The notes: generated by a model from the letters alone, not told the origin. 64,000 bases of DNA from an uncultured bacterium (GCA_963707865.1 OY970175.1:80748-144747), one strand, 5' to 3'; positions 1 through 9,212 are shown, counted from the first letter of the stretch. A program made the numbers and translations.

Positions 1-46
1 GGGAGATTGAGAATGAGTTTAAGGAGATAAAAGGGGAGGTGGAGGA

Positions 47-493
47 ATGAAGCCCGTGGCCGACTGCGCGTTCTGCAACCTGTCCGGCGTCCGGGGGACG
101 ATCTTTAGGGACGAACTCGTGTGGGCGTTCCCGACCTATATCCCTGTCACGTCGGGGCATACGCTTATCGTTCCCGTCCGGCACGTTGCGAAGTTCAGCG
201 ACCTTACGAAAGAGGAAAAGGAGGCGATCTTCGCGCTTGCCGAAAAGATAAAAGCGGCGCTCCGGATCACGTTCGGCGCGGAGGGATTCCATGAGGCATG
301 GAACGAGGGGGAGGCAGCCGGCCAGGCCGTCCCGCATTTTCATCTCCACATCGTGCCCCGCAAGCCGGACGACGCGGGGATCACCGAGTACGAGCCGAGA
401 AAATTTCTCTACCGTCCGGGATCGCGCGAGAAGACACCCGAGAGCGAATTGCAGGCGGTGGCGGAGGAGATTCGGCGGCATATGGACGAATAG
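47..493 (+). CDS. HIT family (histidine triad) nucleotide hydrolase
   Basis: 148-aa ORF with the HIT motif HFHLHIVPR (HxHxHxx) near the C-terminus. Size and layout are typical of HinT-like proteins. Confidence 0.85.
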   Translation: MKPVADCAFCNLSGVRGTIFRDELVWAFPTYIPVTSGHTLIVPVRHVAKFSDLTKEEKEAIFALAEKIKAALRITFGAEGFHEAWNEGEAAGQAVPHFHLHIVPRKPDDAGITEYEPRKFLYRPGSREKTPESELQAVAEEIRRHMDE

Positions 494-494
494 C

Positions 495-1037
495 ATGCTC
501 GCCCTCACCTATTTCGTCCACGGGACGACGAAGGACAACGAGAACGGGATTGCAACGGGATGGCTCGGCGGCGAGCTTTCGGAGCAGGGAATACGGCAAT
601 CGGTTGACCTGAAAAAGCAGATCGGCGATAAAAAGTTTGACGTGGTCTTTTGTTCGGACCTCAAGCGGGCGGTGGACTCGGCGCAATTGGCTTTCGGCGG
701 GACCGTGCCCATTATCGCGCGGCCGGAGCTCAGGGAATGTAACTACGGCGACCTGAATGGGGCGCCTTCGCGCGTGGTGGAACCGCTACAAGAAATGCGG
801 ATCACGGAGCCCTTCCCGAACGGGGAGAGTTATAGAGATGTAGAGCGGAGGGTCGCGGCCTTCATCCAATCTGTGAAGCGGGAGTATGACGGCAAGCAGG
901 TGGCGATTGTCGCGCACAAAGGGCCGCAGCTCGCGCTTGATGTCTTATTGAGAGGGAAGACGTGGAAACAGGCGTTCGCGGAGGATTGGCGAAAGACGAA
1001 GGCGTGGCGGCCGGGGTGGGGGTATGAGGTGGGGTGA
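495..1037 (+). CDS. Histidine phosphatase family protein (phosphoglycerate-mutase-like)
   Basis: The N-terminus FVHGTT matches the RHG-type catalytic histidine region of histidine phosphatases, and the fold-typical spacing continues to a SDLKRA segment. The real start is the ATG at 495, in frame with the longer track ORF 291..1037. The stop at 491-493 of the HIT gene is 1 nt before this ATG. Confidence 0.65.
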   Translation: MLALTYFVHGTTKDNENGIATGWLGGELSEQGIRQSVDLKKQIGDKKFDVVFCSDLKRAVDSAQLAFGGTVPIIARPELRECNYGDLNGAPSRVVEPLQEMRITEPFPNGESYRDVERRVAAFIQSVKREYDGKQVAIVAHKGPQLALDVLLRGKTWKQAFAEDWRKTKAWRPGWGYEVG

Positions 1038-1129
1038 GTTGAATTGAAAGGGCAAAGAGCCAAAGTGAGTTAGTGAAAATAAATTCTCCGCGCCTGAAAG
1101 CGGGAGAATCTATCGCCCCGAAGACAATT

Positions 1130-1417
1130 TTACCCGCAGGTAACACTTGTATTCGCAGAAACCAGAGCTATCCAATCATTGATAAGTAATGATTTTCCTG
1201 TTTCTGCATTGCACGAGGCACACAGAGGAACAATGTACCAACCCCTGTCGGTTGAGCTATCTTTTTGGACGTGAGCTCCAACCGTAGGTTTTGAGAGGCA
1301 TTTATCTACCGGACAATACGAGGGGAGGTCTTGGCCGCTGAAGTTTTTCCAGTGATCAAGCCAGCTGCCGCAGTTGCATCGGTTTCCGCTGGTGCCGTTA
1401 ATATTGTTTATCCTCAT
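1130..1417 (-). CDS. Small Cys-rich protein with HNH-like nuclease motif
   Basis: 95 aa with CxC...CPxxxC, a GAHV histidine and IVPLCASCN, which resembles the HNH zinc-finger nuclease pattern. The gene is AT-rich. A hairpin plus T-run terminator lies on the minus strand just downstream, at about 1085-1120. Confidence 0.35.
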   Translation of the reverse strand: MRINNINGTSGNRCNCGSWLDHWKNFSGQDLPSYCPVDKCLSKPTVGAHVQKDSSTDRGWYIVPLCASCNAETGKSLLINDWIALVSANTSVTCG

Positions 1418-1568
1418 TATACGAAGGTTATTTTAATCTAGAGCGCAGTGATCGTCGACCTCGTCACTTTGGTTTTGCGGATATATTATATCCATCCTAC
1501 ACGGATGTCAAGAATCCCGACATACGAGGGCTTGACTTTTATACAAATAGGGTATAAGCTTTCAATAA

Positions 1569-2249
1569 ATGAGCAAGGAAATCCTTAAAATCATAAGGAA
1601 ATTGCGGCTAGAAAGGGGATTCTCGCAGGCGGCCATTGCTAAAAAATTAGGCATTTCGCGGGTTTCGTACATCGCTACGGAGCATGGGAAAAGGGAGTTA
1701 ACACTCGCCGAGGCACAGAAGCTCGCGGCAATTTTTGGCGCGAACCTGGACGAGATGGAGCGCGGGATCGCGCCGGATTATGACAAGTATAAAGAGATGA
1801 TCATTGCGTATCTGCGCGCAGATGATAGCGACGGCAAATTGCCAAAGACCAAACTCGCAAAGCTTCTTTATCTTGCTGACTTCGGCTGGTTCTACAAGCA
1901 TCTCATAAGCATGAGCGGCATGCCCTATCGAAAGTTCCAGTACGGTCCGGTTCCCGATATGTACTTCCGGGCAATTGACGAGCTCCAAGAGGAAGGAAGG
2001 ATAAATATTGTGCAGCACGATGAGGCCTCGTTGATTTTAGAAGGGGCCGGATCCAAAAATCAAAGGTTGGAGAAGCTGGATAAAAATGAAAAAGCTTTTA
2101 TTGGAGAAATCGCGAAGAGGTGGAGGGGCAAGCGGACGGGAGAAATAGTCGCATTTACCCATAATCAACTCCCGTATAAATTGAGCGCGGATAACGAGAT
2201 AATCCCGTACGAGCTCATCACGCAGGAGGATCCGGACCATGTCTACTGA
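1569..2249 (+). CDS. HTH (XRE family) - Panacea/DUF4065 domain protein (PanA/SocA-like antitoxin)
   Basis: The N-terminus is an XRE helix-turn-helix (LERGFSQAAIAKKLGISRVSYIATEHG). The middle has the Panacea/DUF4065 signature KLAKLLYLADFGW...FQYGPVPD. The last 11 nt overlap the next ORF. Confidence 0.75.
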   Translation: MSKEILKIIRKLRLERGFSQAAIAKKLGISRVSYIATEHGKRELTLAEAQKLAAIFGANLDEMERGIAPDYDKYKEMIIAYLRADDSDGKLPKTKLAKLLYLADFGWFYKHLISMSGMPYRKFQYGPVPDMYFRAIDELQEEGRINIVQHDEASLILEGAGSKNQRLEKLDKNEKAFIGEIAKRWRGKRTGEIVAFTHNQLPYKLSADNEIIPYELITQEDPDHVY

Positions 2250-2631
2250 TTATGGGATCGTTGTTGAACCATTTGCAGAGCGGCACTTCATAAAATCTTT
2301 CGCGAAGAAATATAAAGGCGCGTGGGATATTACCTGGCAGGCCATTGAGGCGGAGTTCAGGCATTTCGATGCGCTCTTTGAAACTTCCATCGCGGAGACG
2401 ATTGTTGATTCTCCGAGCGTAAAGATCTGCAAAACTGAATTCCGGGTGGCCGGAACCAAGGAATCGCGGCATGGGTCCGGTTGCCGTACGATCGTGGCAA
2501 TGGACAAGGGGACCAATATCGTGCACGTGCTCTTGGTGTATTGTAAGGGCGATCTGAAGGACGGGAATGAGACGGCGGCGTGGAAGCGGGTGGTGAGAGA
2601 TAATTATCCGAAGTATAGGGGACTGCTTTGA
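2239..2631 (+). CDS. Hypothetical 130-aa protein, candidate toxin partner of the Panacea antitoxin
   Basis: Overlaps the upstream HTH-Panacea gene by 11 nt and the downstream RM gene by 4 nt, so it is translationally coupled. Its C-terminal half (FRVAGTKESRHGSGCRTIVAMDKGTNIVHVLLVYCKGD) is rich in beta strands and reminiscent of the RelE/ParE fold, but no confident family match could be made by eye. Confidence 0.5.
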   Translation: MSTDYGIVVEPFAERHFIKSFAKKYKGAWDITWQAIEAEFRHFDALFETSIAETIVDSPSVKICKTEFRVAGTKESRHGSGCRTIVAMDKGTNIVHVLLVYCKGDLKDGNETAAWKRVVRDNYPKYRGLL

Positions 2632-4937
2632 AAATAAGGCAAAAACGGCGTAGGATTTTAGAAAGATTTAATCCTATGGACGTAGCGATTGCAAAGGAGA
2701 AAATCGCAGCCCTCGTTGCGAAATATAATGCCGAGGCTGTTTCTGATAAGTTGGGACGTTACAGCGAAGAAGATGTTAAAAACGCTTTTATTAAGCCGCT
2801 GTTCGAAGCTCTTGGCTGGGATATTGAGAATCGCGATGAGACCTCTGCGGAGGAACATATTAAATTCGCCGGAAGGGCTGATTACGGTTTTTACCTGAAT
2901 GGTCGCCCGAAATTTTACCTTGAAACAAAGAAGGTATCAGCTGACCTAAATAATCCTGAGTTTGCTAATCAAGCTGTTCGCTATGCGTGGAACAAAGGTA
3001 TTACCTGGGCAGTACTTACCAATTTTAAGGGTTTGAAAATTTTTAATGCTCAAGATATCAAGCGATCACTTGCAGATAAACTTTTTAAGGATATTAAACA
3101 CACGGAATACCTTTCACGCCTAGATGAACTCCTACTCCTTTCTCGGGAAGCTTTCGCGGAAAACCTATTGGATAAAGAAGCTGCAAAAGTAGGGAAAATT
3201 TATCTTCGGGTTCCCGTAGGCGACAAGCTTTATAAAGACCTAGATGAATGCCGAGCCAAGCTTACAAATGCTTTGCTCAAGTGCAACCCCGAACTGAAAA
3301 AGAATCATGATCTTCTTGATGAGGGCGTGCAGAAATTACTGGATCGTCTTATCTTTCTCCGCGTCGCCGAAGATCGCAATGTCGAGCCAAACATTTTAAG
3401 AATTCTTCTACGCGAAGCACAATCAACCCGCAAAGGGGAAATGTCGCTATATCAAGCGATGACAGAGAAATTTCGGGAACTTGACAAGGTTTACGACTCC
3501 AATCTTTTTTCGGAACATCCTTTTGAAAATTGGGATGAATATGATGGCGCTACGGAAAAAGTGATTGAAAAACTGTACGGAGAAAAGGGATACTATGAAT
3601 ATGATTTCAAGTTGATGCCAGCCGATGTTTTGGGCACCGTCTATGAGCATTATCTTGGCTACCGGCTTTCAAAAACAAAACCAGACAAGCGGAAATTGAT
3701 TCAAAGCAGCGGTGTAGAGCTCAGTAAGGATTCCAAGAAACGCAAGGAGCAGGGGATTTATTATACACCAACATTCGTTGTGGATTATATCGTTCGCCAC
3801 GCTTTGCAGCCAGTGCTTGATAAATGTAAAACATATCAAGACTTGATAAATGTAAAAGTTTTGGATCCTGCGTGTGGCTCTGGCTCTTTTCTTTTGAAAG
3901 CGCTTGAAGTCTTTAATGAAAAATATAAGGAGCTTGGGCAGAAAGGGGATGAGGATACTAAGCGCATTATTTTGAGCTGTAATTTATATGGCGTTGATCT
4001 TGACGAAAAAGCCGTAGAGATCGCAAGATTGAATTTACTCATAAATTCGCTTGATAGAAAAGAAGTTTTGCCTACGCCGAATATTAAATGTGGTAATTCG
4101 CTTATTTCCGGATCTGCTGAGGATCTTAAAAAATATTTTGGGGAAAATTGGAGGGAAAAGAAGCCGTTTAACTGGGAAGAAGAATTTTCTGAGATATTTA
4201 AAAACGGGGGATTTGATGTGGTGATTGGGAATCCGCCCTACGTGGTTTTAGAGGCAAGCGATGACCATTTATCATTTTTGAGAGATAACTATAAATCTTC
4301 ACAAGGGGGCAAAGTTAATCTATATAAGGCGTTTATCGAGCGAGGCATTGCCTTACTCAAAAGTGGCGGTCATCTCGGCTTCATCTGCCCTAGCAATTAT
4401 TTGTCGAGTAGCGATAGTAAGACCCTGAGAGAATTATTACTGAAGGAGACTAATTTAATTGAGATAATTGAATATTCTGAAAAAGATAAAGTTTTTGACG
4501 GTGTCACACAGGCTCTAACTACGATTATTTTCGAGAAGAGTAAAATGCATGCAAGTCAACTAGTCCATCTTGTAACAAAGAAGTATGGAGATGCAATTGT
4601 CGCCCAAGACAATCTACTTGAAGGTGAGGGCTATGAGTTTGTTGTTGAAAATAAAGCAATTAAAAAAATTGGCGATGCGAAATTAAGAATTTCCGATTTA
4701 TGCGAAGGATATCAGGGGGAGATCAATGTTAGTACAAAAAAAGAATTTTTTATACACGGGGCAAGAAGCAATTATCTGCCCCTACTTCGAGGTAATCAAA
4801 TTTTTAGATACCAACTCATTCCCTCTGATGAGTTTTGCCCAATTAGTATAGATAAAAGGGGGCACTGGAAAAGCCCACGCATTGTTTTACAAGAAGTTTC
4901 TAATCAGCAACAAGATAGAAGAATCAAGGGCGTTTGT
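2628..4937 (+). pseudogene. Type IIG/IIL single-chain restriction-modification enzyme, N-terminal 770 aa (Mrr-like PD-(D/E)XK nuclease + gamma-class N6-adenine methyltransferase), truncated by IS insertion
   Basis: N-terminal nuclease motif GRADYGFY...FYLETKK (D...ExK). Methyltransferase motifs GIYYTPTFVVDYIV, VLDPACGSGSFL (FxGxG, motif I) and VIGNPPYV (NPPY, motif IV). The reading frame runs into IS sequence after ...RIKG at about 4930 and terminates at 4967. The gene is AT-rich. Confidence 0.7.
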
Positions 4938-5959
4938 TTCATGTCCGCACATTTGTCCCCTCGATAGCTTGAAGATATTCAACCGGCGTCTTTCCCGCAA
5001 GGGCAAGATGAGGACAGACCGTGTTGTACCAGGCGCAGTACGCGGCCTGTTTTTGTTTCGCTTCGGCCACCGTGCGGAATGATATCTTGTTCCAGAACCG
5101 TTCGCGGTCATTGCGATGCGACCGCTCCACCTTGCCGTTCTGCGCAGGATGCCCCGGGGCGATGAGATAGTGCGTCATTTTTTGTTTTTCACAAGTAACA
5201 TCAAAAGGATGCAACCGCGGCTTCAGGGGATCTGCTGACTTCGGATATCCCACGTACCGGTTCGTGAAGATTGATCCGTTATCGGTCTTCACCGCACGGA
5301 TGCGGAAGGGTGCCGTAGCAATGACTTTCTCGAGAAACAAGATCGCGGTCCGCGTGGATTGTTCTTGGGTCACCCAGAGATGCCGCCACCGCGTGCAGCA
5401 ATCAATCGCGGTGAACTGGTAGAGCCATTGCCCCTTGAATCTCCGCACATAAACGACATCAATCTCGATGATCTCTCCGGGAAACGTGGCGGTCGGTTTC
5501 CACTTTGCTTTGGGCACCAACCGTTTTTTGGTTCTTGAGAGCCCCTCACGTTTCAGGACTTTGGCAATACCCCGCACGGAGAGCTTCAGGCCCTCGCGGG
5601 CGAGGAGATACATGAGGACATCAGGACCCAGATCCGTTGCTGTTCGCAACGATCTGATCCGATTCACGATGGTCTGTGAGAATTGTTTCGGATGCGTGTG
5701 CGGCCTGCGCGAGTGCGACACGAGCGCATCGATCCCGCCCCTGCGATATGCCGCCACCCACCGCTTGAGCGTGCGATATGAAAACGGCGCGTGGGCAGCA
5801 ATGTCCTTGATACTCATCTCTTTCTCAAGATGCGGGGTGATCCACCGCATCCGTTCCTCTGCTGCGTCTTTTGCGAGTGTTTGTGGCATATTCCCCAGCT
5901 TACACTTCAAGGGGCCATATGTATGTGCAGAGTACCCGTTCCTATTGACAGTGGGTTTC
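4938..5959 (-). mobile_element. IS481-family insertion sequence (~1.02 kb) inserted into the RM gene
   Basis: Carries a single DDE (rve-type) transposase ORF. Its GC is much higher than the surrounding AT-rich RM gene. The flanking RM fragments rejoin in frame if a putative 5-bp target-site duplication TTTGT (4933-4937 and 5960-5964) is collapsed. Imperfect terminal repeats share GCACAT...CCCCT. The boundaries are approximate, +/-10 bp. Confidence 0.6.
4939..5889 (-). CDS. IS481-family DDE transposase (integrase core domain)
   Basis: N-terminal HTH region, then integrase-core motifs (...TAIDCCTRW..., ...KTDNGSIFT..., ...APGHPAQNGKVERSHR...). The likely start is the ATG at 5889 (MPQTLAKD...), inside the longer track ORF 4939..6003. 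Confidence 0.75.
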   Translation of the reverse strand: MPQTLAKDAAEERMRWITPHLEKEMSIKDIAAHAPFSYRTLKRWVAAYRRGGIDALVSHSRRPHTHPKQFSQTIVNRIRSLRTATDLGPDVLMYLLAREGLKLSVRGIAKVLKREGLSRTKKRLVPKAKWKPTATFPGEIIEIDVVYVRRFKGQWLYQFTAIDCCTRWRHLWVTQEQSTRTAILFLEKVIATAPFRIRAVKTDNGSIFTNRYVGYPKSADPLKPRLHPFDVTCEKQKMTHYLIAPGHPAQNGKVERSHRNDRERFWNKISFRTVAEAKQKQAAYCAWYNTVCPHLALAGKTPVEYLQAIEGTNVRT

Positions 5960-6357
5960 TTTGTGGCCACACCACGAATTATGTTTTTCCCAAAGACAAA
6001 CACGCAGATATTTATTATTTGTTGGGGCTATTAAACAGTCGGGTGGTTGATTATTACTTTAAATATTTTAATAACACAAACCACGTTCCCATAGGAGAAC
6101 TGAAAGATATTCCCGTTCCGAAGACAACCAAAAAGGAACAAGATGTTATAGGGAATTTAGCAAAAATAATGGTTGAGCTACATCAAAAATGCGATAGCGT
6201 CAAAGAGAATTCAAATGGATGGAAAATTCTAAAAATTGAGATCGAAAAAACTGACAGAAAAATTGACGAAGAAATTTATAAATTATATAGCCTCAATCAA
6301 GAAGAAATGAAAACAATAGAGGGAGACTCAGAATCTTTAATCAAGCGGTCCAAATAG
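5960..6357 (+). pseudogene. C-terminal fragment (~130 aa) of the disrupted type IIG RM enzyme
   Basis: HTTNYVFPKDKHADIYYLLGLLNSRVVDYYF...IGELKDIPVP...EEIYKLYSLNQEEMKTIE is the characteristic C-terminal region of type IIG / gamma-MTase enzymes. It is AT-rich like the N-terminal fragment. Confidence 0.55.
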
Positions 6358-6540
6358 TTTCGGCAGGCTATGTAATAGATATGGACGGTCGCGGGCCGGT
6401 AAGACCGGCCCGCTCCTGCGGAACCTCTCGGTTCCGCACTGTCCCGCCGCAAAATCGTGCGGCGGGACCTTCCTACACGGGGCACCTCCCGGTGCCCCGA
6501 CCCCCTCCCCGAATCCATGTCTCGGTAGTATCTTATGTGT

Positions 6541-7650
6541 ATGCGCATCGTTGGACATCTCGACATGGATTCCTTCTTCGCCTCAATAGAAGAGAGGGAT
6601 CGGCCGCGCTTGAAGGGTTTGCCGATTGTTATTGGTGCGGATCCGGAGGATGGCAGAGGACGCGGGGTGGTGTCTACCGCGAACTACCGGGCGCGGGAAT
6701 ATGGGATTCGGTCTGCACTCCCAATTGCGACGGCGTGGCGGTATTCGGAGGCAGCGCGGAAGAAGGGGCTCCCGCCTGCGGTCTTTCTTGGGGTCAATAT
6801 GGAAAAATATGCGGAGGAGTCGCGGCGCGTGATGGGGATCGTGCGCGAGGTCTTGGGGGCCACGGCGCTTGTGGAGGAGGCGTCGGTGGATGAGGCGTTC
6901 GTTGATCTGTCGTTCACGGGTTCGTATGAGCGTGCGGAAAAGGTGGCGCGGACGGTCGCGCGCGCGATCAAAGAAAAAACGGGACTCACGGCGTCGGTGG
7001 GCGTGGGGCCGAACAAGCTTATCGCAAAGATCGCGTCGGACCGCGAGAAGCCGGACGGGTTCACATTTGTGCGAGAGTGCGATGCCGAGAAATTCCTTGA
7101 GCCCTTGCCGATCCGCACGATCCCGGGCGTGGGACCAAAAACGGAGGCGCGGTTCAGGGAGCAGGGCGTCCGCACGGTGGGGGACGCGAAGCGGTTCACG
7201 CGTGAGGAGCTTACGGAGATGATGGGCAAATGGGGTGCGGAGCTCTACGAAAAATTGCGCGGGCGGGACGAGTCACCGCTCGTCACGGAGTGGATCGCGA
7301 AGTCCGTGGGGGAGCAGGAGACCTTTCCGCGTGACACGCACGACCCGAAGTTCCTGCGTGAGCGCTTAACCGCGCTTGCGGCGGGGGTCTATGAGCGATT
7401 CGCGGCGGAGGCTTCGGAGGGGCACTTTAAAAGCTTCCGCGGCGTCACGATCACCGTCCGCTTCGCGGACTTTGCGACCGTGACGCGCGCGGCGACGCTT
7501 GACGAACCCGTTATGGCCCGCGACCCCGCTGCGCTCCGCACGCTCCAGTTCCAGGCCTTGCGCCTCTTCATGCCTTTCCTTGACCGCCGCGAGAATCCCG
7601 CGCGCAAGGCCTTCCGGCTCCTTGGGGTGCGCGTGGAGAAGCTGGTTTAA
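6541..7650 (+). CDS. dinB: DNA polymerase IV (Y-family, DinB)
   Basis: HLDMDSFFASIEERDRP...LKGLPIVIG...SVDEAFVDL motifs, with a size and domain order typical of DinB. Confidence 0.85.
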   Translation: MRIVGHLDMDSFFASIEERDRPRLKGLPIVIGADPEDGRGRGVVSTANYRAREYGIRSALPIATAWRYSEAARKKGLPPAVFLGVNMEKYAEESRRVMGIVREVLGATALVEEASVDEAFVDLSFTGSYERAEKVARTVARAIKEKTGLTASVGVGPNKLIAKIASDREKPDGFTFVRECDAEKFLEPLPIRTIPGVGPKTEARFREQGVRTVGDAKRFTREELTEMMGKWGAELYEKLRGRDESPLVTEWIAKSVGEQETFPRDTHDPKFLRERLTALAAGVYERFAAEASEGHFKSFRGVTITVRFADFATVTRAATLDEPVMARDPAALRTLQFQALRLFMPFLDRRENPARKAFRLLGVRVEKLV

Positions 7651-7691
7651 GTCAGCGGATTTTAGAAGATTTTAACCCCTTATTTGATAGT

Positions 7692-8045
7692 GTGGGTTGG
7701 ATGGAAAAGGATTTTGGGAAGTGGCATATTCTTAAAACAGATCTCCAGCGCAGAGAAGGTGGGCCATTTTTCGCCAAGCGAGAGATCTGGATTTGCTCAG
7801 TCGGTTTAAACCTTGGCCACGAAGAAGACGGGAAAGGTGATCGATTTTTGCGCCCGGTTGTCATCTTTAAGAAATTTACCTCAGATCTCTTTTGGGGCAT
7901 ACCTCTCACAAGTAGCGACAAGAGTGGACCATCCCATTATCAATTTAATTTCTTGGTTCCACAAATCGAAACCCCTTCTCGCGAAGAAGGGGTTTCTCGG
8001 GGGGCCGAAGCCCATTGTGATTCCAGTATAGCAGGAGCAGGATAA
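7692..8045 (+). CDS. PemK/MazF-family toxin-like protein (mRNA interferase fold), no cognate antitoxin seen
   Basis: REIWICSVGLNLGHEEDGKGDRFLRPVVIF...GIPLTS matches PemK/Kid (GEIWLVSLDPTAGHEQQGTRPVLIV...VPVTS). The C-terminal 40 aa are divergent. No small upstream ORF is present. Confidence 0.5.
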   Translation: MGWMEKDFGKWHILKTDLQRREGGPFFAKREIWICSVGLNLGHEEDGKGDRFLRPVVIFKKFTSDLFWGIPLTSSDKSGPSHYQFNFLVPQIETPSREEGVSRGAEAHCDSSIAGAG

Positions 8046-8101
8046 TTGTCAACCATCATTTAATGAAAATTTAATCTCTGGACAGGTGGTAGAATTCAAG
8101 T

Positions 8102-8350
8102 ATGAAGATTTTTGTGAAGGCGAAACCTGGCGCGAAGAAAACGGCCGTGGGCGATGCAAACGAGCTTTTGGGAAAGACAGGTGAGATTCACCTTATTGTT
8201 TCCGTGAAGGAGCCCGCGAAGGAGGGTCGCGCAAACCGCGCGATAGAAAGGGCGCTTGCGGAGTATTTTAAGGTGCCGCCGTCGCGCGTGCGGATCGTTG
8301 CAGGGCATGCGTCGCGCGAGAAGGTCGTGGAAATCGGCGGCGCCCCATAG
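8102..8350 (+). CDS. DUF167/YggU family protein
   Basis: 82 aa, with KAKPGAKKTAV...EPAKEGRANRAIERALAEYFKVPPSRVRIVAGHASREKVVEI typical of UPF0235/YggU. Confidence 0.7.
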   Translation: MKIFVKAKPGAKKTAVGDANELLGKTGEIHLIVSVKEPAKEGRANRAIERALAEYFKVPPSRVRIVAGHASREKVVEIGGAP

Positions 8351-8360
8351 GCGTGCTATA

Positions 8361-9212
8361 ATGGAAAATATGCCGGATACAACGCCGAAGGTGGCGATGG
8401 ATTCGCTGGATACGCTTTTTGCAGGGGCATGGCGTTTATATAAAACGCGTTTTTCGGTGCTCCTTAAGATCACGCTCGTCCCCGCAGTCCTCATCGTATT
8501 GGGGCAGCTCGCAATAAGTCGCAGAACGCCTACGGCGGAAGTGATCGGAGTACTCATTGGTTTTGTGGGATGGCTTACCTCCATCGTGGCATCGCTTGCG
8601 CTCATCGTGGCCGCCGCGCGCGACGCCAAAATGGAGGACGCGTACGGAACGGCCCTCAAGCTTTTCTTGCCATCGCTGTGGATCGCCATTCTTGAGGGCA
8701 TTGTCGTTATGGGAGGATTTGTACTCTTCATCATACCCGGCATTTTCGTCGCCATTGCGCTTGCGTTCGCAAATTTCGCGCTTGTGCTTGAGGACCGGCG
8801 CGGCATGCACGCGCTTGCGGAAAGCAGAGAATATGTTCGCGGCTATTGGTGGGCGATCCTCGGACGGAACATGCTTCTTGCGCTTATCTACGGTGCGCTC
8901 GTAATGCTTATCTACACTCCCTTTACGATTATCTTCGGGGGGCTCGTGGGCGGCATCGTGTACGGCTTGCTTCTCCTCGCCATCGTTCCTTTTGGAATTT
9001 GCTATTCTTACACGATCTATGAAAATTTGCGGTGTTTGAAACCGGCCGCTGCGGATGACGCCGCGCGCGCAAGCCGTACGTTCTTTATCGTGTGCATGGT
9101 GGTGGCACTCGTTGCGGCACTCGCGCTTATCGTGGCAATCGCGTTCCTTGTGCGACCCGCAGTTAGCGATCCGTATTGGTGGCCCAAGATGGGCACGTCT
9201 GGGAGCGTGTAG
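8361..9212 (+). CDS. Integral membrane protein (multi-pass), unknown function
   Basis: 284 aa from the ATG at 8361, with about 6 hydrophobic helices. Codon usage matches the host. It converges with tsaD. Confidence 0.5.
   Translation: MENMPDTTPKVAMDSLDTLFAGAWRLYKTRFSVLLKITLVPAVLIVLGQLAISRRTPTAEVIGVLIGFVGWLTSIVASLALIVAAARDAKMEDAYGTALKLFLPSLWIAILEGIVVMGGFVLFIIPGIFVAIALAFANFALVLEDRRGMHALAESREYVRGYWWAILGRNMLLALIYGALVMLIYTPFTIIFGGLVGGIVYGLLLLAIVPFGICYSYTIYENLRCLKPAAADDAARASRTFFIVCMVVALVAALALIVAIAFLVRPAVSDPYWWPKMGTSGSV

Follow-up and report, generated by a model that had tools for sequence, protein, structure and literature searches.

The subject of this study is the region at about 1040–6360 of a 64,000-nt stretch of DNA from an uncultured bacterium (GCA_963707865.1 OY970175.1:80748-144747), a stretch referred to here as the window and on which all coordinates are based; the host is a small-genome (~0.9 Mb) bacterium of the Patescibacteria, or candidate phyla radiation (CPR), belonging to Minisyncoccia. 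The region is best explained, at a probability of about 0.85, as the AT-rich part of a mosaic accessory segment of defence type, lying in a hypervariable slot upstream of dinB. Three modules appear to have been acquired independently, namely a solitary zinc protein, a PanAT toxin–antitoxin (TA) pair and a type IIG restriction–modification (RM) enzyme, and a host-resident insertion sequence (IS) of the IS481 family would have transposed between codons 753 and 754 of the RM gene, generating a 4-bp duplication and inactivating the gene. The insertion site was probably chosen by way of a TTGAC(A) hexamer 8 bp away, present by chance in the RM coding sequence. The PanAT pair, the RelE-fold toxin, the type IIG RM gene and the IS disruption are all of known kinds; what appears to be new are two protein families missed by domain databases and the TTGACA-directed pattern of insertion. 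An earlier account made without database searches (the sequence-only reading) had described four elements here, and all of them were found near where it had placed them, with the corrections given below. An open reading frame (ORF) map was made for 1–9000, and the main features are as follows.

1130–1417, minus strand: Cys/His-rich protein of 95 amino acids (aa), likely to bind two zinc ions; its family is large and uncharacterised
1569–2249, plus strand: PanA antitoxin, 226 aa, with helix-turn-helix (HTH) domain HTH_3 at residues 9–62 and SocA/Panacea domain at residues 96–203 (Pfam)
2239–2631, plus strand: PanT, predicted toxin, 130 aa, with a RelE/ParE-superfamily fold model; its first 11 nt lie within the end of panA
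2676–4934, plus strand: RM gene N-part, 753 codons, comprising a PD-(D/E)xK nuclease, a helical linker, a gamma-class N6A methyltransferase and the start of the specificity domain
4931–4934, no strand: target-site duplication CGTT, copy 1, repeated at 5937–5940
4935–5936, minus strand: IS481-family insertion sequence, 1002 bp, with ends TGTTTCATGTCCGCACAT... and ...ATGTGCAGAGTACC (lineage consensus TGTTTTAGGCACAC... and GGTAATGTGCACAC...)
4939–5889, minus strand: IS481-family DDE transposase, 316 aa, ATG at 5889 (NCBIfam transpos_IS481)
5937–5940, no strand: target-site duplication CGTT, copy 2, matching 4931–4934
5941–6357, plus strand: RM gene C-part, 138 codons and stop, with the rest of the TaqI_C-like specificity domain (Pfam TaqI_C, 4.2e-7) and C-terminal helices
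5945–5950, plus strand: TTGACA hexamer within the RM coding sequence (ATT GAC AGT), at a distance of 8 bp from the end of the IS and apparently what determines the target of this IS lineage

A type IIG RM gene interrupted by an IS481-family element

On homology and reading frame, the segments 2676–4934 and 5941–6357 are a single type IIG RM gene, and the IS breaks its TaqI_C-type specificity domain at codon 753/754, making the gene a disrupted member of that class. The N-part (753 aa if counted from the ATG at 2676, the likely start, or 769 aa from a TTG at 2628) holds within one ORF both HSDR_N (PD-(D/E)xK; residues 45–143) and Eco57I/N6_Mtase (residues 370–655) domains; its best PADLOC match is the REase_MTase_IIG model PDLC03604 (E = 9e-104), and its Pfam matches are Eco57I (3.9e-42), N6_Mtase, MmeI_Mtase and HSDR_N. 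The C-part is matched by TaqI_C and by the C-terminal portions of the PADLOC models found with the N-part. The motif residues D69, E83, K85, D397–F405 (DPACGSGSF) and N519–P521 (NPP of NPPY), invariant in 16 family members, are all present. In carrying an N-terminal PD-(D/E)xK nuclease, a gamma-class N6A methyltransferase and a C-terminal TaqI_C domain on one chain, the protein resembles other type IIG enzymes (PADLOC REase_MTase_IIG, with an Eco57I-type methylase), and in motifs I (DPACGSGSF) and IV (NPPY) it resembles the gamma-class methyltransferases M.TaqI, BseCI, CamA and BsaXI. These four and PglX are its nearest solved relatives by sequence, over the methyltransferase domain only. It differs from known type IIG enzymes in that the gene is interrupted and in that its closest relatives are uncharacterised CPR proteins; homologues number >7,700, the closest intact ones being 866–888 aa long with up to 69% identity, and those with names come from Levy-, Woese-, Woyke- and Sungbacteria. 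The sequence-only reading had described just such a single chain, with both domains and an interrupting IS, and in this it was right; its fragment lengths of 770 and 130 aa become 753 (769 from the TTG) and 138 aa, and its comparison with MmeI holds for the methyltransferase domain (MmeI_Mtase PF20473, 4.6e-11) but not for the nuclease, which is HsdR-N-like (HSDR_N) rather than of the MmeI N-terminal type, nor for the target recognition domain (TaqI_C).

When 4934 is joined to 5941, which removes 1006 bp, an 891-aa ORF results that is free of stops and 68% identical over 879 residues to the intact homologue P0002. In the alignment of P0002–P0008, exactly eight residues separate RRIK from LCGHTT, and the joined window gene reads RRIK-GVPIDSGF-LCGHTT. 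The insert of 1006 bp consists of the 1002-bp IS (4935–5936) and the second copy of CGTT, the whole insertion spanning 4935–5940. The element is like other IS481-family members in its length of ~1 kb, its one DDE (rve) transposase, whose N-terminus carries an HTH and a leucine zipper, its 4-bp duplication and the TGT... terminus at its transposase-downstream end. The transposase matches NCBIfam NF033577 over positions 2–283 of 284 (4.3e-69, 233.2 bits against a cut-off of 224), and carries the Pfam domains rve, rve_3, HTH_28, HTH_32 and LZ_Tnp_IS481. Differences from the family lie in the transposase-upstream terminus, which is GGTA... and not TGT..., in the distance to its best transposase relatives in GTDB species genomes (≤54% aa identity, mostly Patescibacteria), and in the fixed N8-TTGAC(A) target context of its lineage, usually a full outward-facing promoter. 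An exact look-up of the 316-aa transposase returned no record. On the upstream side of the transposase the lineage consensus reads GGTAATGTGCACAC..., and on the downstream side ...GTGTGCCTAAAACA; the corresponding ends of the window element are GGTACTCTGCACAT... and ...ATGTGCGGACATGAAACA. Its inverted repeats are imperfect, with the core TCCGCACAT / TCTGCACAT, and match the ends of the lineage consensus. Of 30 loci with its relatives, 15 show duplications of 4–5 bp exactly at the corresponding boundaries. For the IS481-like elements of eukaryotes (IS481EU), duplication classes of 4 bp and ~15 bp have been reported (PMC10045372).

Judged by these boundaries, the insertion is a genuine, simple and recent transposition, the word recent being used solely because both pieces of the RM gene are without further lesions. 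As the source is a metagenome-assembled genome (MAG), and assemblies often go wrong at IS elements, the junction between IS and RM gene might be suspected to be an artefact, but this is most improbable. The 4-bp duplication is clean, removal of the insert restores exactly both the reading frame and the family length, and both IS ends fit the lineage consensus; moreover, an independent Logan assembly (contig L001, run ERR10755942) reads from the HIT gene through the RM gene and ends 30 nt inside the IS, at 4964, an end that would fit a k=31 unitig stopping at a repeat boundary starting at 4935. Given a true insertion, the gene could still be alive in some form. The N-part ORF continues through 10 IS-encoded codons to a stop at 4965–4967, and this 763-aa product, or both fragments together, might keep methyltransferase or nuclease activity, as the two domains lie wholly in the N-fragment with their motifs intact and neither fragment has other lesions; alternatively, the IS could be a reversible switch that operates by precise excision. 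Such survival is very unlikely. The IS splits the specificity domain, recognised by homology to M.TaqI, BseCI and BsaXI, and a TaqI_C-type domain is needed for DNA recognition in related solved enzymes; the C-fragment showed neither a start codon nor a ribosome-binding context, the adjoining TTGACA has no -10 partner, and precise excision of DDE IS elements is rare. Inactivation by a simple transposition is therefore preferred over both alternatives, and because one polypeptide carries out restriction and modification through the same specificity domain, the two activities would have been lost together.

The TTGACA target pattern

The hexamer TTGACA beside the IS is homologous to ATT GAT AGG in the intact P0002 gene and thus belongs to the RM gene itself. 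Most of 50 independent relatives of the IS (loci L020–L096) read N8-TTGACA-N17-TATAAT away from the transposase-upstream end. Exact TTGACA occurs in 22 of 51 loci, each position of TTGAC is matched in 39–47 of the 51, and the information content peaks at TTGAC (~0.7–1.6 bits per position), with a weaker peak at the -10 positions. The simplest reading would be that this IS481 lineage picks TTGAC(A) at a fixed distance, the hexamer usually being the -35 box of a promoter and its occurrence in the RM gene being fortuitous. Put more specifically, the patescibacterial lineage may recognise TTGAC(A) exactly 8 bp from the point of integration, thereby parking just upstream of intact promoters. No description of sequence-directed, promoter-proximal targeting by IS481 elements was found in the literature searched. 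A different placing of the IS end, with TGTCAA-N8 as part of the element (giving TGT...ACA termini), was considered and set aside: the 4–5-bp duplications fall inside that stretch, the hexamer corresponds to homologous RM coding sequence in P0002, and its removal breaks the reading frame.

The PanAT pair and the Cys/His-rich protein

Within the overall explanation, and with the same confidence, the genes at 1569–2631 are taken to be a type II PanAT pair with a RelE-fold toxin. Both Pfam domains of PanA score above cut-off (HTH_3, 2.8e-12; SocA_Panacea PF13274, 5.5e-11, 43.8 bits against 25.7), and its HTH also has a weak match to the PADLOC 'Control_protein' models. A two-gene operon with the antitoxin first and the toxin overlapping it, a SocA_Panacea domain behind an N-terminal HTH, and a toxin fold of the RelE superfamily, as in MqsR- and ParE-like PanTs, are features shared with the known PanAT systems (Kurata et al. 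2022, PMC8832971; Ernits et al. 2023, PMC10440598). Among HTH-bearing PanAs, 343 with the N-terminal HTH architecture have been reported (PMC8832971), and the annotated PanT partners are most commonly MqsR-like, Fic/Doc or toxSAS, with PemK and ParE also represented (PMC8832971, PMC10440598). The window's pair differs from these systems in its toxin family, which has no Pfam, NCBIfam, PHROG or PADLOC model: >516 homologues were found at 58–84% identity, largely in Patescibacteria, all of them unannotated and none with a Pfam domain, and PanT itself gave no match in these four collections, nor any PDB sequence match by single sequence or profile. The same PanA–PanT pair recurs beside unrelated neighbours in L002, L003-5, L006 and L007, with co-varying identities (PanA 51–65%, PanT 62–70%), and in the loci inspected the PanT homologue always lies downstream of an HTH-Panacea gene. 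The Pfam domains, this conserved pairing and the fold model bear out the HTH-Panacea/toxin pair of the sequence-only reading. A 92-aa ORF upstream of panA in L002 was examined for homology to the Cys-rich protein and proved to be a membrane-like peptide unrelated to it.

The AlphaFold (AF2) model of PanT has a predicted local distance difference test (pLDDT) score of 86.9 and the topology beta-alpha-alpha-beta4-alpha, with a C-terminal helix at 111–122. Its best Foldseek match in the PDB is aRelE (1wmi_A; E = 3.8e-4, probability 1.0), followed by HigB2 (8a0x/5mje), YoeB (7v6w) and RelE (4fxh) at probabilities of 0.9–1.0. PanT shares its predicted topology with these interferases and differs from them in length (130 aa vs ~85–110), in sequence (7–22% identity), and in having a Panacea antitoxin and not RelB, HigA or YefM. 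The family-invariant residues K65, E67, R83, Y101, K103, Y123 and Y126 are placed on the predicted sheet, at a strand end or in the C-terminal tail, which fits an RNase-type member of the RelE superfamily. PanA would presumably repress the operon through its HTH and neutralise the toxin by direct binding; PanT, once freed, would most likely cleave mRNA on the ribosome, and activity as a ribosome-dependent mRNA endonuclease is rather probable. Such autoregulation, and any anti-phage role of the pair, would follow from likeness to known systems. PanT may represent a new, highly conserved and largely CPR-specific family of RelE-fold PanTs, where 'new' is measured against the domain libraries and the PDB.

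The 95-aa protein is provisionally described, from its conservation and its model, as a two-zinc protein of an uncharacterised family. Searches gave 1305 cluster representatives at E ≤ 1e-3 (424 at ≤ 1e-10) and 1025 homologues at 62–75% identity, some family members being tandem duplications, and the size of the family argues that the ORF is a real gene. Across 122 representatives the residues C14, C16, W19, H22, C35, C40, G47, P64, C66, H/C69 and C94 are kept at 93–100%, and the eight conserved Cys/His among them would be ligands enough for two zinc sites. The protein had no match in Pfam, NCBIfam, PHROGs or PADLOC, and none to an HNH family there even at E ≤ 10, searches of PDB sequences, by profile as well, returned nothing relevant, and Foldseek found no match for its AF2 model (pLDDT 89.5) in the PDB (best E 2.2) or BFVD. 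The family may be a new two-zinc fold of >1300 clusters without a structural relative. This proposal, the new PanT family and the recognition of TTGAC(A) by the IS lineage are tentative, and are given jointly a little below even odds.

Homologues of the 95-aa protein are solitary and stand in unrelated contexts, and on this ground the gene was rejected as a part of the PanAT module. In the mobile-element-like locus L101 (2948–4948), a homologue is first in an operon divergent from an HTH_3 and Peptidase_M78 (ImmR/ImmA-like) pair, with DUF932 and DUF6908 nearby and an ORF of ~66 aa next downstream; on a Brevibacillus plasmid (L186, 1387–1930) a homologue is likewise followed by a small ORF. Phage and plasmid collections gave one and four distant 'hypothetical' matches, respectively. 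The CxCGSWLxHW segment (residues 14–25) has a weak, below cut-off match to Pfam TT_ORF2-like in 19 of 28 members (P0241–P0382; E ~0.01), a model that includes the CxCx5H motif of anellovirus ORF2, and this is probably motif convergence.

For each of these two proteins another function may be weighed. PanT could be a ParE-like gyrase poison, or some other non-RNase toxin of RelE fold: the RelE/ParE fold is common to RNase and gyrase-poison activities (PMC10440598), ParE-type PanTs are on record (PMC8832971), and PanT is longer than RelE and bears the C-terminal helix at 111–122. This is nonetheless unlikely, as the top 30 fold matches are RelE, HigB, YoeB and Cami1 RNases, none being named ParE among the matches listed (a PfiAT complex is unclassified), and the invariant basic, acidic and Tyr residues occupy, as in RelE and YoeB, the predicted sheet, the end of a strand and the C-terminal tail; the RNase reading is retained. 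The 95-aa ORF had been labelled an HNH-like small nuclease in the sequence-only reading, and a minimal HNH/His-Me-finger enzyme can indeed be drawn onto it, with zinc bound by C35, C40, C66 and C/H69 and an active site of H49, D57 and N70 on a beta-beta-alpha unit. The spacing C-x4-C ... H49 ... D57 ... C66-x2-(C/H)69-N70 resembles zinc-stabilised HNH motifs, the model predicts beta strands at 46–52 and 61–65 and a helix at 67–70, and H49, D57 and N70 are kept in 83%, 82% and 80% of the 122 representatives. Among 28 family members, single ones also gave weak, below cut-off matches to RecA_dep_nuc (E = 0.006; 1/28) and DUF968 (0.14; 1/28), presumably both HNH-related families. Set against this are the lack of any HNH match for the window protein in the profile collections and PDB searches named above, the lack of a fold match for a confident model, the position of H49 in mid-strand and not at a strand end, and the substitution in ~20% of representatives of H49, which becomes Leu, Phe, Tyr or Arg, and of N70, which becomes Ser or Ala, compared with 93–100% conservation of the eight Cys/His ligands. 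A nuclease is therefore doubtful, although less improbable than a gyrase poison is for PanT, the label is left unsupported, and the description as a two-zinc protein is kept.

Composition and the variable slot upstream of dinB

The window has a mean GC content of 52.7% (sd 4.3%, 1-kb windows). The genes bordering the AT-rich part are at 61% (HIT), 60% (phosphatase) and 63% (dinB), and within it the values are 47% for the Cys-rich ORF, 49% for PanA, 51% for PanT, 40% and 34% for the RM N- and C-parts, and 55% for the IS transposase. Along the sequence the GC content goes from ~60% to 36–45% over 1200–4800, is 55–57% in the IS and 35% at 6000–6400, and is 61–65% in dinB. Breaks in the GC content of third codon positions (GC3) are sharper still: 0.785 (HIT), 0.75 (phosphatase) and 0.77 (dinB) in the flanks, against 0.49 for the Cys-rich ORF, 0.60 for PanA, 0.61 for PanT, 0.35–0.38 for the RM gene and 0.64 for the transposase. 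The three compositional classes within the island argue for separate acquisitions of its modules. An AT-rich accessory or defence island at 1040–6360, with the IS as a GC-richer stretch inside it, had been proposed from the sequence, and both the compositional discontinuity and the variable slot described next support it. The features around the island are as follows.

1–46, plus strand: 3' end of a conserved upstream ORF, the left synteny anchor; 2–44 align at 88% to L015 4214–4256 and L016 3732–3774, with divergence beyond
47–493, plus strand: HIT-family gene (Pfam HIT)
498–1037, plus strand: histidine phosphatase gene (Pfam His_Phos_1)
6388–7650, plus strand: right synteny anchor, conserved intergenic sequence and dinB; blastn 87–88% to L014, L015 and L016 from 6388
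6535–7650, plus strand: dinB (Pfam IMS, IMS_C)

Nucleotide synteny with relatives (blastn) is limited to window positions 2–44 and 6388 onward, which places the variable slot at ~45–6387, the AT-rich part being its right-hand 5.3 kb. The HIT and phosphatase genes, taken in the sequence-only reading for flanking housekeeping genes, do have a host-like GC content but are not conserved neighbours, as neither has a tblastn match at the same locus in L014–L016. Between xseA and dinB, L014 holds only a distant HIT gene (24% identity to that of the window) and two small ORFs, and in L015 and L016 the slot is filled by a different 5.6-kb cargo that includes an HTH and Gp49 TA pair, SRAP and a NucS_C protein. 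That synteny is found only outside the slot, and that its cargo differs among relatives, indicates that the slot between the conserved small ORF and dinB is hypervariable. No tRNA genes, integrase, or att-like or flanking repeats were found at the island borders. With TA and RM modules gathered in a region that is variable and foreign in composition, and with an RM gene lost to an IS insertion, the locus is like defence islands with IS-driven RM turnover; it differs in being without integrase, tRNA gene or flanking repeats, the slot being defined by its conserved neighbours only.

In the closest named relative, the Minisyncoccia MAG GCA_049997875.1, the slot upstream of dinB (L015 4266–6871, L016 3784–6389) has cargo that differs from the window's, yet is again of a TA and DNA-repair flavour, Gp49 being HigB-like. 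Just after dinB in the window, a low-GC patch carries a 117-aa ORF (7692–8045) that matches a MazF-like growth-inhibitor PHROG (phrog_9567, 7.5e-8, residues 5–81); only its last ~27 codons have a homologue downstream of dinB in relatives, and it may therefore be a truncated or recently inserted MazF-like gene.

Recurrence around the RM family

A survey of 82 RM loci, including 80 further loci of the family from metagenomes, found Panacea pairs beside the RM gene in seven; control loci totalling 367 kb had no Panacea ORF. The closest intact RM homologue (L098–L100) has a divergently oriented Panacea gene with a 122-aa partner 420 bp upstream, the L098 pair being only distantly related to the PanAT of the window. 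In five of the 80 metagenome loci a Panacea ORF followed by an ORF of 115–157 aa lies within ~520 bp of the RM gene and in its orientation, upstream of it in L114 and downstream in L121, L170, L171 and L181. The association is suggestive of defence-island clustering, and Panacea pairs may do more than share a location with the type IIG RM family: they may have a functional link to it, for instance in keeping the RM module stable or serving as its backup. The Panacea proteins beside other RM homologues were considered as members of the window's PanAT family and rejected (22–28% identity, with partners lacking a match to the PanT profile). A second, independent IS disruption of the RM family is read from L128 (5001–8920), where a homologue of 59–60% identity is split inside motif I (DPA|CGSGSF) by a 1.35-kb insert that encodes a 434-aa rve-type transposase on the opposite strand. 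The claim of the sequence-only reading that IS-hit RM genes and TA neighbours are a recurrent signature is upheld by this second hit and by the seven loci with Panacea pairs.

The pairs lie at L098 4722–5578, L114 3941–4883, L121 8311–9460, L170 4996–6097, L171 7761–8970 and L181 5380–6544; their partner ORFs have no Pfam match, and N-termini of the form F.K.FKRL.KKF.SL..DLE look RelE/ParE-like by eye. Small HTH ORFs (~75 aa) occupy the position of a controller (C) protein upstream of RM homologues in four loci (L129 500–724, L153 222–440, L160 4710–4946, L164 295–513), within 10 bp of the RM match in the last three.

Assessment and significance

Several observations weigh against the explanation offered here. 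The fold match of PanT is modest, with template modelling (TM) scores of 0.45–0.54 (query-normalised) and the low sequence identities noted above. The sequence upstream of panA showed no inverted repeat of operator type, and promoter-like and terminator-like sites occur at chance level only. No IS-free allele of this RM gene was found, the best non-self match being at 69%. The control for the association between Panacea pairs and the RM family is small and unmatched. Finally, a second low-GC stretch of the window, at 24.5–31.5 kb (40–47%), carries genes for transport and nucleotide metabolism (a P-type ATPase, an AI-2E family transporter, CYTH and NUDIX) along with unmatched ORFs, so that low GC by itself is no proof of the putative defence role.

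In small, CRISPR-poor CPR genomes, the locus gives a view of defence turnover in progress, with a slot upstream of dinB that is refilled with other TA, RM and repair cargo, and from which a resident IS would have just removed a restriction enzyme. The families of PanT and of the zinc protein could enter the annotation of TA and defence systems, and insertions of IS481 elements that are predictable from TTGACA would bear both on the 'safe-site' strategies of insertion sequences and on the annotation of promoters in uncultivated bacteria.

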